DNA of 42,392 nucleotides from a virus (lineage: Duplodnaviria; Heunggongvirae; Uroviricota; Caudoviricetes). The notes beneath the pieces were generated by a model, which was given only the letters and a program-made list of their open reading frames with translations, made no database searches and was not told the DNA's origin. Both the position numbers and the translations under genes were made by a program. The DNA is taken from IMG/VR virus record IMGVR_UViG_2778261252_000011. One strand, 5' to 3'. Shown here in pieces: positions 6,010 through 9,107 of this stretch (its first letter is position 1; each line of letters begins with the position of its first letter).

Positions 6010-6230
6010 CACCATGACTCCGCCTTTACAGGTAAACCATCACGACCGAGGAAGACTTTAATCATGCGGTCAGTAATGCATGTTTTTGTGGTCAGGTTAC
6101 GAATATATAGTTTTCGCTTTTTAATATTGTTTGCCGAGGCAATATATGTCCGGCCTTCATGAAGAACATAATCGCCAGGAGTCACACACTGACGTGGTAT
6201 TTCATCAGTTCCGAAGTGATGTGCAATCAT
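6009..6230 (-). CDS. kilR: KilR cell-division (FtsZ) inhibitor (73 aa)
   Basis: Translation [46 protein letters not shown]... matches Rac KilR. Confidence 0.8.
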
Positions 6231-6671
6231 AATTATCTCCATTTTTACAAATGAACTTTGTTGATGCGGTGCCTGGTGCCTCCAGGTGACTGCAACCAGT
6301 TAACAATTACAGTCGGCTTTCCCACCCAAACCAATAAGGACTAACATGACTTTTAACTGTGCCACGTGCGCTTAGCCGCATTCACCGCATCACAAAATTC
6401 ACTTTAAAAAGGGCGGACATCAGCCGAACTTCAAGAAAAAAACTGATGCCGCCAGGACTACACACAGCAATGTCGTTATTTACAACCGGAGGCGCACTCC
6501 CACCATTTAAATTTAACAGACAAGACCGACTCTTTATGGATATCGGAAATGCGCCTTCGTGTTGTGCCCGGTTTTATTTCACCACCTCCGGGCTTCGGTG
6601 GTCTCGGCTATACCCCTACAGCGAGAGCTTGTGTTAACATTTCAATACCCTTACAGTTGAGAGTTATTGAT

Positions 6672-7160
6672 ATGTTGGATGTATTTACTCCATTGTTGAA
6701 ACTTTTTGCTAACGAGCCACTCGAAAGACTTATGTATACGATTATCATTTTTGGTCTCACTCTCTGGCTGATACCGAAAGAGTTTACTGCCGCATTCAAT
6801 GCTTATACTGAAATACCTTGGCTCTTTCAGATTATCGTTTTTGCCTTTTCTTTCGTGGTCGCCATTTCCTTCTCAAGATTGCGAGCACATATTCAAAAGC
6901 ATTATTCATTACTACCAGAGCAACGAGTATTGCTTCGTTTATCTGAGAAAGAAATCGCTGTATTTAAAGATTTCCTTAAAACAGGAAATCTTATTATCAC
7001 TTCTCCTTGCCGTAACCCGGTTATGAAAAAATTAGAACGGAAGGGCATCATTCAACATCAGAGTGATAGCGCAAACTGTTCTTATTATCTCGTCACCGAA
7101 AAATACTCCCATTTTATGAAGTTATTCTGGAACAGCAGGAGTAGACGTTTTAATCGTTAG
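6672..7160 (+). CDS. sieB: SieB superinfection-exclusion protein (162 aa, membrane)
   Basis: Translation MLDVFTPLLKLFANEPLERLMYTIIIFGLTLWLIPKEF...; internal Met of the 203-aa ORF; hydrophobic N-terminal segments. Confidence 0.85.
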   Translation: MLDVFTPLLKLFANEPLERLMYTIIIFGLTLWLIPKEFTAAFNAYTEIPWLFQIIVFAFSFVVAISFSRLRAHIQKHYSLLPEQRVLLRLSEKEIAVFKDFLKTGNLIITSPCRNPVMKKLERKGIIQHQSDSANCSYYLVTEKYSHFMKLFWNSRSRRFNR

Positions 7161-7312
7161 CTTACTGTGTGCTTCTCCAACCATCGGCGCGCACCAGTTT
7201 CGGTTTTAAATGTTTTGCTTTTGGTATACGTCATGGCAGTGAACGTTCCATCCTGGTTGGGGAACACGCCGCACACCAGGGATTCGTTGTTGCCGAGGTC
7301 GATTTTTTGCAT
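7157..7312 (-). CDS. ydaF: YdaF-like small protein (51 aa)
   Basis: Hand translation MQKIDLGNNESLVCGVFPNQDGTFTAMTYTKSKTFKTETGARRWLEKHTVS; 4-nt overlap with the sieB end; the name is assigned by position and size only. Confidence 0.4.
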   Translation of the reverse strand: MQKIDLGNNESLVCGVFPNQDGTFTAMTYTKSKTFKTETGARRWLEKHTVS

Positions 7313-7322
7313 TTTGCGAATC

Positions 7323-7457
7323 TCACATCTTGTTGCTACGTATAGCGACTTCTGCCTGCCAGAGATCCCAGTCGTTGCTGCGTAAAGCCTGCACAGCCTT
7401 GTTGTAAGTGATACCGCAACAATCCATCAAATACTGAACTACTTCGTAATGCACCAT
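7323..7457 (-). CDS. ydaG: YdaG-like small protein (44 aa)
   Basis: Hand translation MVHYEVVQYLMDCCGITYNKAVQALR...IRSNKM with stop at 7323-7325. Confidence 0.5.
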   Translation of the reverse strand: MVHYEVVQYLMDCCGITYNKAVQALRSNDWDLWQAEVAIRSNKM

Positions 7458-7765
7458 CTTATCTCTCCCCTTAACGCCGGGTGGCGGAACTAACTGCTGC
7501 ACTGCAAAATTTGAATCCCGCCGTCATGTTCATACGCCTCGGGCTGGCTACTTAACCCCTTACCACTGCCTGGTAACTCGAAGTATTGCCCGGCGTTCTG
7601 TGGGGCGGGGTGGGTGGTATGCTGGAACTATAGGTAATGCCTAATTGATTGTCAATAGGCTATGCCTAATGTTTTGAGCGTAACCTAATAGGTGATGGCG
7701 ACAGCAGAAAGTGATGGGGGGGTTAAATAACGGAATCCAGGAGTTTTCCGTCAGACCATATAAGT

Positions 7766-8242
7766 TTAAGTTCCAGTTTTTGTGATGTTCTGGCTTTTCC
7801 GTTCAGATTCTAGAGCTTTCAGATACTTACCCACTTTCATTTCCATCGCTGCTATATAGGCGCGAACATCGTGGTCAACCCAATCTGGTTCTGTAGCATT
7901 TCCAGATAACAGGAAAGCTACAATCGCTCTTATTTCATCAGAGGCTGCTTGATAAAGGTTGTTTATATCTAAAAGTTCACTTTTTGTATCTGAATTGGTG
8001 GGGGTTGGTATGGGGTATTCGTTAAGCCCCCAATGCTCTGGACCAACAACATCAGAAAAGAAACGCCATAATTCTGGAAGTTTATCTTTACTTATAGAGC
8101 CTTTCTTAATCCAGTCATAAATTGATGGTGGTTGGACTTTGAAGTGGCGTGCGACCTCCGCCTTTGATTTGACGGATCCCGATGCGATTTTTTTGTTAAT
8201 GGCCTGCTCTATCGCTCGGCCTAAGTCTTTACCACTAAGCAT
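7766..8242 (-). CDS. racR: RacR prophage repressor (158 aa, HTH)
   Basis: 158-aa ORF divergent from ydaS; N-terminal helix-turn-helix-like segment; matches Rac RacR. Confidence 0.9.
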   Translation of the reverse strand: MLSGKDLGRAIEQAINKKIASGSVKSKAEVARHFKVQPPSIYDWIKKGSISKDKLPELWRFFSDVVGPEHWGLNEYPIPTPTNSDTKSELLDINNLYQAASDEIRAIVAFLLSGNATEPDWVDHDVRAYIAAMEMKVGKYLKALESERKSQNITKTGT

Positions 8243-8365
8243 TGCTTAATATTCTCCTATGCGCATTACATTAGGCAATCCCTACCCTTACCGCATTAGG
8301 CACAGCCTATTGACAATTGCGTTAGGCGTCGCCTAATATTTCTGTGTGTTTTTGGAGTTCATTCG
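8243..8365. promoter_or_regulatory. racR / ydaS divergent control region with ATTAGGC half-sites and the perfect palindrome TTAGGCGTCGCCTAA (8322-8336)
   Basis: Direct reading: ATTAGGC at 8270-8276 and 8295-8301, the palindrome at 8322-8336, and GCCTATTGACA at 8305-8315. Confidence 0.5.
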
Positions 8366-8662
8366 ATGAAAAAAGAGAACTATTCATTCAAGCAAGCTTG
8401 TGCTGTTGTCGGTGGGCAATCAGCAATGGCTAGGCTTTTAGGTGTATCACCTCCAAGCGTAAATCAATGGATCAAAGGGGTACGTCAATTGCCTGCCGAG
8501 AGATGTCCAGCAATTGAACGTGCAACAAGAGGTGAGGTTCTGTGCGAAGAACTTCGTCCTGATATTGACTGGTCATATTTACGACGTTCGGCATGTTGTT
8601 CGCAGAATATGTCAGTGAAGCAACTAAATGACAGTAACAAATCCTCATTTGATCATACCTGA
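8366..8662 (+). CDS. ydaS: YdaS Cro-like HTH protein (98 aa), toxic when derepressed
   Basis: 98-aa ORF divergent from racR; HTH-like segment QSAMARLLGVSPPSVNQWIKG. Confidence 0.85.
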   Translation: MKKENYSFKQACAVVGGQSAMARLLGVSPPSVNQWIKGVRQLPAERCPAIERATRGEVLCEELRPDIDWSYLRRSACCSQNMSVKQLNDSNKSSFDHT

Positions 8663-8684
8663 AACATCAAGAGGCAAATGATTC

Positions 8685-9107
8685 ATGAAAATCAAGCATG
8701 AGCACATCGAATCAGTGTTGTTTGCCCTAGCAGCCGAAAAAGGGCAGGCATGGGTAGCCAATGCAATTACTGAAGAATATCTGCGCCAGGGGGGCGGCGA
8801 ATTGCCCCTGGTTCCAGGCAAGGACTGGAACAATCAGCAGAATATCTATCACCGTTGGTTGAAAGGTGAAACGAAAACGCAAAGAGAAAAAATTCAGAAG
8901 CTGATCCCAGCAATTCTGGCAATCCTTCCGCGCGAGCTGCGTCACCGACTCTGCATCTTCGATACCCTGGAACGCCGTGCATTACTGGCGGCGCAGGAAG
9001 CGTTAAGTACGGCAATTGATGCGCATGATGATGCAGTCCAAGCCGTTTACCGGAAAGCGCATTTCAGCGGCGGCGGTTCTTCCGACGATTCTGTCGTAGT
9101 GCATTGA
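8685..9107 (+). CDS. ydaT: YdaT (140 aa), CII-like / toxic partner of YdaS
   Basis: 140-aa ORF immediately downstream of ydaS, as in Rac. Confidence 0.8.
   Translation: MKIKHEHIESVLFALAAEKGQAWVANAITEEYLRQGGGELPLVPGKDWNNQQNIYHRWLKGETKTQREKIQKLIPAILAILPRELRHRLCIFDTLERRALLAAQEALSTAIDAHDDAVQAVYRKAHFSGGGSSDDSVVVH

Follow-up and report, generated by a model that had tools for sequence, protein, structure and literature searches.

[quoted passage not shown]

The repressor gene of the Rac prophage, racR, probably has a counterpart of lambda OL/PL on its far side. We place this counterpart at positions 7627-7668 of the window (the whole stretch of 42,392 bp that was analysed), where a strong leftward promoter would be shut by RacR and would drive the early-left operon as far as xis and int. 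The evidence lies in the anatomy of the sequence, in the statistical significance of its repeats, in its conservation among relatives and in an immunity cassette boundary that falls at the promoter. The right half of the arrangement is published and the architecture is a textbook one, of which the left unit would, beyond Rac, be an expected instance; in Rac itself the left unit apparently has not been described before.

A RacR-controlled promoter of the PL type beside racR would offer a simple cause for the silencing of kilR and recET, for the silencing of the excision genes and for the joint release of all of these when RacR drops. It would fill an explicit gap in current work on Rac, where the RacR regulon is stated to be uncharacterised (PMC11014345). 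It may likewise be relevant to the classical sbcA activation of recET.

Gene layout of the window

The window is the E. coli Rac prophage. Over positions 7300-8700 it matches one complete genome at 100% identity and K-12 derivatives at 99.6%. E. coli K-12 MG1655 has exactly the same racR-ydaG intergenic sequence, and its racR-ydaS spacer differs from that of the window by a single base outside the operators, so that published work on K-12 can be applied directly to the window. The features discussed here are collected in Table 1.

To the left of racR, the genes ydaG, ydaF, kilR, ydaE, racC, recE, recT, xisR and intR all occupy the minus strand between 7457 and position 1; sieB is the exception to this orientation left of the left unit. 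The left operon therefore runs on the strand of racR and carries early functions (kil, recombination, xis, int). At the ydaG position, the first after the predicted left promoter, no N-like antiterminator was evident. YdaG itself matches the UBA-like domain family PF14555 with 24.1 bits (cut-off 21.8).

Two sub-threshold Rfam matches were seen between kilR and sieB, both on the minus strand: DicF at 6411-6466 (39.1 bits against a gathering score of 48, E = 3e-6) and STnc100 at 6223-6409 (35.5 bits against a gathering score of 47). At the equivalent place the K-12 annotation has the non-coding RNA kilS, which corresponds to about 6406-6503 of the window.

Table 1. Genes, operators and promoters around racR (window coordinates; mismatches are counted against TAGGC-N3-GCCTA)
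Feature	Position	Strand	Description
ydaF	7157-7312	-	DUF1391; second gene of the leftward operon
ydaG	7323-7457	-	44 aa, UBA-like; first gene past the left promoter
Predicted 5' leader of the leftward transcript	7458-7620	-	C-rich start CAUACCACCCACCCCGCCCCACAG, common to heteroimmune prophages
Predicted leftward promoter (PL-like)	7627-7655	-	Consensus scan, 11/12 matches
OL1	7631-7643		TAGGTAATGCCTA; RacR-type operator, 1 mismatch
OL2	7656-7668		TAGGCTATGCCTA; perfect core, 0 mismatches; adjoins the -35 hexamer
Two everted half-site-like pentamers	7683-7698		ACCTAATAGGTGATGG; kept between K-12 and the 87% identical O157 copy, flank otherwise diverged
racR	7766-8242	-	Repressor gene between the two operator clusters
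Weak operator over the racR ATG	8236-8248		TAAGCATTGCTTA; 2 mismatches; equals published O3 (PMC9638921)
OR3	8272-8284		TAGGCAATCCCTA; 1 mismatch; racR promoter region
OR2	8297-8309		TAGGCACAGCCTA; adjoins the -35 box of PydaST
PydaST (PR-like)	8310-8339	+	TTGACA 8310-8315, 18-nt spacer, TAATAT 8334-8339; 10/12 matches
OR1	8323-8335		TAGGCGTCGCCTA; between -35 and -10 of PydaST
ydaS	8366-8662	+	Cro-like, first gene of the rightward operon; P22_Cro match, 36.8 bits
ydaT	8685-9107	+	

The operator motif on both sides of racR

RacR regulation has been described to the right of its gene. Krishnamurthi 2017 reported GCCTAA/TTAGGC repeats in the racR-ydaS spacer and showed that RacR binds there (PMC5700373). 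A study in Nucleic Acids Res 2022 mapped PydaST (TTGACA/TAATAT) and three racR promoters, footprinted RacR, and defined the half-site as ATTAGGC and the operators as (T/A)TAGGC-n3-GCCTA(T/A) (PMC9638921). The operators of the spacer were published as O1-O3 (PMC5700373, PMC9638921) and later counted as four inverted repeats. In the footprint OR1 is the first site that RacR protects, and OR3 also lies in the protected spacer (PMC9638921). Both papers are limited to the spacer and the racR start and contain no left operator or looping; in the later one, ydaG, ydaF, sieB and looping have zero occurrences (PMC9638921).

A sequence-only reading of this DNA had proposed that racR is bracketed by inverted copies of an operator-like motif. 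The elements on which it relied are present. The 11-mer TGTCAATAGGC lies at 7650-7660 and its reverse complement at 8305-8315; GCCTAAT half-sites lie at 7639-7645 and 7664-7670, ATTAGGC half-sites at 8270-8276 and 8295-8301, and the palindrome TTAGGCGTCGCCTAA at 8322-8336, 29 nt upstream of the ydaS ATG (8366). The second operator cluster that it placed beyond racR is real, with matches at 7631 and 7656. Its assignment of the motif to RacR also holds, in that the motif agrees with both the published footprint half-site and the operator consensus (PMC9638921).

Taken alone, the short elements are weak evidence. GCCTAAT occurs in 6 copies in the whole window against 5.2 expected, and two matches to the 11-mer with at most one mismatch were reached in 17 of 100 shuffles. 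Of the six copies of GCCTAAT, five nevertheless cluster inside 700 bp, and the inverted arms extend to 35 nt with 83% complementarity (7648-7682 against 8283-8317). The full motif is a 13-bp palindrome, TAGGC-N3-GCCTA (5-3-5). With at most one mismatch it has five matches in the 42,392 bp (7631, 7656, 8272, 8297 and 8323), all of them flanking racR, and none elsewhere. Dinucleotide shuffles (n = 300) gave a mean of 0.78 matches and a maximum of 4, so that none reached five. Pairs of matches 20-30 bp apart were observed three times and never in the 300 shuffles; moreover, two matches never came up together when the racR-ydaG intergenic region was shuffled 20,000 times. The full repeat pattern around racR is not due to chance.

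The same operator motif thus stands on both sides of racR in inverted orientation. The centre-to-centre spacing is 25 bp for OL1-OL2, 26 bp for OR1-OR2 and 25 bp for OR2-OR3. The left side has two good sites and the right side three or four, an imbalance that we count against the OL/PL reading. No third left operator was found at the 25-bp spacing, where there are only everted half-sites (7683-7693). The block of everted pentamers to which these belong is absent from relatives outside the Rac group.

Two outward units built on one plan

A promoter consensus scan of 7300-8500 returned exactly two sites, and each uses the TTGACA of the shared 11-mer. That 11-mer is therefore an operator half-site fused to a -35 box. 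The left promoter has TTGACA at 7655-7650, a 17-nt spacer and TATAGT at 7632-7627 on the minus strand, with a predicted transcription start near 7620. The right promoter is PydaST, which has been verified experimentally (PMC9638921, PMC11879457).

The two units follow the same plan: O2 adjoins TTGACA, and 6-7 nt beyond that hexamer O1 begins, its final TA serving as the first two bases of the -10. OL1 accordingly lies between the two hexamers of the leftward promoter and shares 2 nt with the -10. The units point outward from racR with their operators in identical register, and each operator cluster overlaps an outward-facing sigma-70 promoter, predicted from the sequence on the left and verified on the right (PMC9638921).

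The sequence-only reading had overlooked both the -35 hexamer inside the 11-mer and the outward near-consensus promoter at the far-side cluster, and had suggested looping or autoregulation as the function of that cluster. Because the cluster sits on such a promoter, directed towards ydaG and the leftward operon, its first-order role is most likely repression of the PL type, and not mainly looping or autoregulation.

RacR probably binds the left sites, whose recognition motif is identical to that of the published operators and whose arrangement around the -35 and -10 is the same (PMC5700373, PMC9638921). With RacR dimers on the neighbouring operators O1 and O2 (25-26 bp apart), both hexamers of each promoter would be covered and the promoter shut. 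Without RacR, both outward promoters would open, and the left one, which we infer to be active, would transcribe ydaG, ydaF, kilR, ydaE, racC, recE, recT, ralR, xisR and intR.

A rival reading assigns the left sites chiefly to another regulator, either the Cro-like YdaS or a host factor. A Cro-type protein does share the operators of the repressor in lambda and CP-933P (PMC8630535), and YdaS matches P22_Cro. The motif is, however, the one footprinted with RacR (PMC9638921), and among relatives with different neighbouring genes it goes with the RacR DNA-binding domain. The role of RacR would, besides, stand even if YdaS used the sites as well. We regard chief use by another regulator as very unlikely. 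As a separate candidate, a YdaT box (TTGATT-N6-AATCAA) at the left site was rejected on inspection by eye: TTGATT is present at 7645-7650 and has no partner arm.

The sequence on either side of the predicted left promoter was searched for RNA elements. The start of the leader (about 7590-7622, minus strand) is C-rich and G-poor, CAUACCACCCACCCCGCCCCACAGAACGCC, and is common to three heteroimmune prophage cassettes; it could be a Rho-loading or nut-like element. The predicted left leader was searched for a nut- or put-like RNA: Rfam gave no match, and the fold was not significant (z = -1.5). In the stretch from the racR stop codon to the left promoter (7695-7775, minus strand), the search for an intrinsic terminator turned up nothing but a weak hairpin (7722-7748) that did not exceed shuffled sequences (z = 0.15). 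At this spot relatives have clean intrinsic terminators, often just before the left unit. The silencing of kilR depends on Rho and NusG (PMC5793797), and the weak hairpin downstream of racR may be linked to this dependence.

Response of the leftward genes to RacR

Published experiments on RacR agree with a promoter at this place. On RacR depletion, ydaG, ydaF, kilR, ydaE, racC, recE, recT, ralR, xisR and intR rise from 40-fold to more than 100-fold (PMC6765115, PMC11014345, bioRxiv 10.64898/2026.09.06.749655), and in the same experiments racR mRNA falls 11- to 100-fold (PMC6765115, bioRxiv 10.64898/2026.09.06.749655). The rise of xisR and intR, about 100-fold when RacR is lowered, was reported although these genes are "far away" from racR (PMC11014345). 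Since racR mRNA falls as the leftward genes rise, the leftward transcripts need a start between racR and ydaG, and we reject read-through from the racR promoters as their source. We infer that they arise at the predicted left promoter.

YdaS, YdaT or excision could indirectly account for part of the rise of the leftward genes. In vivo, PydaST has little activity even when RacR is missing (PMC11879457), and therefore other factors (OxyR, H-NS, Rho) may dominate at the left promoter too. In the literature that was searched we found no description of a Rac left operator or promoter; the older sbcA work, Conter 1996 or EcoCyc/RegulonDB may already describe the left unit.

Conservation of the left unit in relatives

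RacR homologues were aligned and one genome per species was scanned, which yielded 29 loci; a tblastn search of RacR against a phage collection gave 6 records, 2 of them useful. The operator motif accompanies the RacR-type DNA-binding domain, with at least one match in 26 of the 29 scanned loci. A downstream doublet with a promoter, on the strand of the repressor and pointing away from it, is present in 14 non-redundant loci (the window and 13 further ones) from gamma- and beta-proteobacteria. These are the window and its O157 variant (the Rac group), Klebsiella phage KpF5, Mixta, Morganella, Proteus, Erwinia, one Pseudomonadota genome, two Achromobacter, Burkholderia, Sphaerotilus, Comamonas and Rhodoferax. 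In the named genera from Mixta to Rhodoferax and in phage KpF5, the RacR homologues that come with this doublet and promoter show 42-62% identity.

The position of OL1 is occupied in all 14 loci. In the aligned columns the half-sites and TTGACA reach near-maximal information and the -10 keeps TA..AT, whereas there is hardly any in the N3, the linker and the flanks. The weak operator at the repressor ATG is kept in most relatives. Same-strand open reading frames start shortly past the left unit. The distance of the unit from the repressor stop is about 100 bp in enteric bacteria and 1.2-2.4 kb elsewhere, where the repressor is longer or extra genes lie in between.

Extra genes between the repressor and the left operator were seen in KpF5 (L002, 3149-4303) and in two betaproteobacterial loci (L024, 3112-3486; L031, 3163-3540). 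They include a DUF450 protein and small open reading frames, and their slot is that of rexAB, which in lambda lies between the repressor gene and the left operator.

Two further observations concern the repressor itself. The N-terminal DNA-binding domain of RacR (70-82% identical) is, in other bacteria, also found fused to an S24 (LexA/CI-type) peptidase domain (P0103, P0105, P0114 and P0117), so the same operator-reading head is paired with cleavable and with non-cleavable C-terminal domains. In a 5.2-kb contig binned as 'Candidatus Nanosynbacter' (L006, JARKOR010000130.1), the encoded RacR matches that of E. coli Rac at 100% identity and the operator sites are the same; the contig most likely came into that bin as a contaminant.

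Conservation also bears on whether the left unit could be a decayed relic, that is, a duplicated promoter and operator in a defective prophage that is no longer bound or used. Rac is cryptic and OL1 has one mismatch, as a relic might. Yet every one of the 1086 E. coli genomes with racR has the left region, its sequence is identical in K-12, and the O157 copy, 87% identical, keeps the half-sites while its spacers and flanks have changed. The same design, moreover, extends across two proteobacterial classes, and the leftward genes are strongly RacR-dependent in K-12 (PMC6765115, PMC11014345, bioRxiv 10.64898/2026.09.06.749655). Decay is thus the least credible of the explanations that we considered, and we give it hardly any weight.

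A cassette boundary at the left promoter

Many E. coli genomes have the ydaF-ydaG region and lack racR. In two heteroimmune prophages the homology with the window ends at about 7615-7620, a few bases from the predicted left start. One of them, in strain E89, encodes a different small HTH repressor and has its own motif, AATGTACT, on both sides of that gene. The other encodes a LexA-family repressor, and its own motif, GGTAAC-N5-GTTACC, again lies on both sides of the gene; this pair forms a 15-nt inverted repeat with 93% complementarity. As each heteroimmune repressor is bracketed by a motif of its own, the operator bracket is a general feature of immunity cassettes exchanged at this place. 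At its left boundary, which lies at the promoter, the cassette therefore behaves as a unit exchanged among heteroimmune phages.

A possible loop between the two clusters

The left sites could instead serve mainly as a distal anchor, for a RacR loop or for racR autoregulation, with control of the left promoter secondary. In the loop version, a RacR octamer would bridge OL1-OL2 and OR1-OR2, so that racR lay within a loop of about 0.64 kb, and would tighten repression of PydaST or tune racR. RacR is reported to elute as an octamer on size exclusion (151 kDa; PMC11014345). Each side has two tandem sites 25-26 bp apart, the centres of OL2 and OR2 are 641 bp apart, and the bracket arrangement is kept in relatives. 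The operator spacing in lambda, 23-24 bp, is close to that of Rac.

Other features of the relatives speak against looping as the main role. Among them the clusters are anywhere from about 0.6 to 2.4 kb apart, whereas the left sites are always joined to a promoter in fixed register, so that conservation points to the link with the promoter and not to distance or phase. In addition, the study that described the octamer accounts for it with four inverted repeats, all within the racR-ydaS spacer (PMC11014345). We consider it unlikely that anchoring or autoregulation is the main function of the left sites.

Such a role can nevertheless coexist with the OL/PL reading, and looping by a RacR octamer is plausible as an addition to promoter repression. 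The left unit allows a second reading of the octamer, as a complex on two left and two right sites and not on four sites in one spacer. A stronger form of this idea, which we put forward tentatively and with somewhat more doubt than belief, is that the RacR octamer forms a lambda-like looped switch although the oligomerisation domain of RacR has a fold unrelated to that of lambda CI, a case of convergent long-range cooperative repression in which the left unit would be both PL operator and loop anchor. If this were true, the convergence would have taken place in a non-cleavable repressor family that spans gamma- and beta-proteobacteria.

Comparison with known systems

In the lambda immunity region, OL/PL is followed by (rexBA) cI and then by OR/PR, so that inverted operator clusters bracket the repressor gene. 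Rac is alike in many respects. Each operator cluster overlaps an outward sigma-70 promoter (the left one of Rac being predicted), and neighbouring operators lie about 2.3-2.4 helical turns apart. The left operon includes kil, recombination, xis and int functions, the right operon begins with a Cro-like and a CII-like gene, and the repressor can form octamers. There are also clear differences. The C-terminal domain of RacR is unrelated to that of lambda CI and lacks an S24 self-cleavage module. The Rac operators are 13-bp 5-3-5 palindromes where those of lambda are 17-mers; Rac has two clear left sites and lambda three; the clusters are about 0.64 kb apart in Rac and about 2.4 kb apart in lambda; and Rac, unlike lambda, has no rex-like genes between racR and the left operator. 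We know of no antirepressor in Rac.

A tested precedent for the left unit exists in the sister prophage CP-933P, in which PL933P with OL1-3 was sought by analogy with lambda, found, and tested with gfp fusions (Jurenas et al. 2021, PMC8630535). CP-933P is a Rac-like prophage, also cryptic, whose right operon is ydaS-ydaT and whose repressor, PaaR2, is octameric. Like Rac, it has a second promoter beyond the repressor operon, with a -35 and -10 resembling those of PR and with matching operators (PMC8630535). Its repressor family and operator sequence are different from those of Rac, and a toxin-antitoxin pair lies between repressor and PL (PMC8630535); its PL is established by gfp fusions, whereas that of Rac is predicted from sequence.

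The Gifsy prophages offer a third comparison. They differ from Rac in that induction proceeds through LexA-controlled antirepressors and in their operator sequences (PMC3121763). Their repressors GfoR and GtgR are nevertheless similar to RacR: they have about 150 aa, lack a cleavage domain and are grouped with RacR and DicA (PMC3121763). As in Rac, the left operon of Gifsy carries recET orthologues and is silent in the lysogen (PMC3121763).
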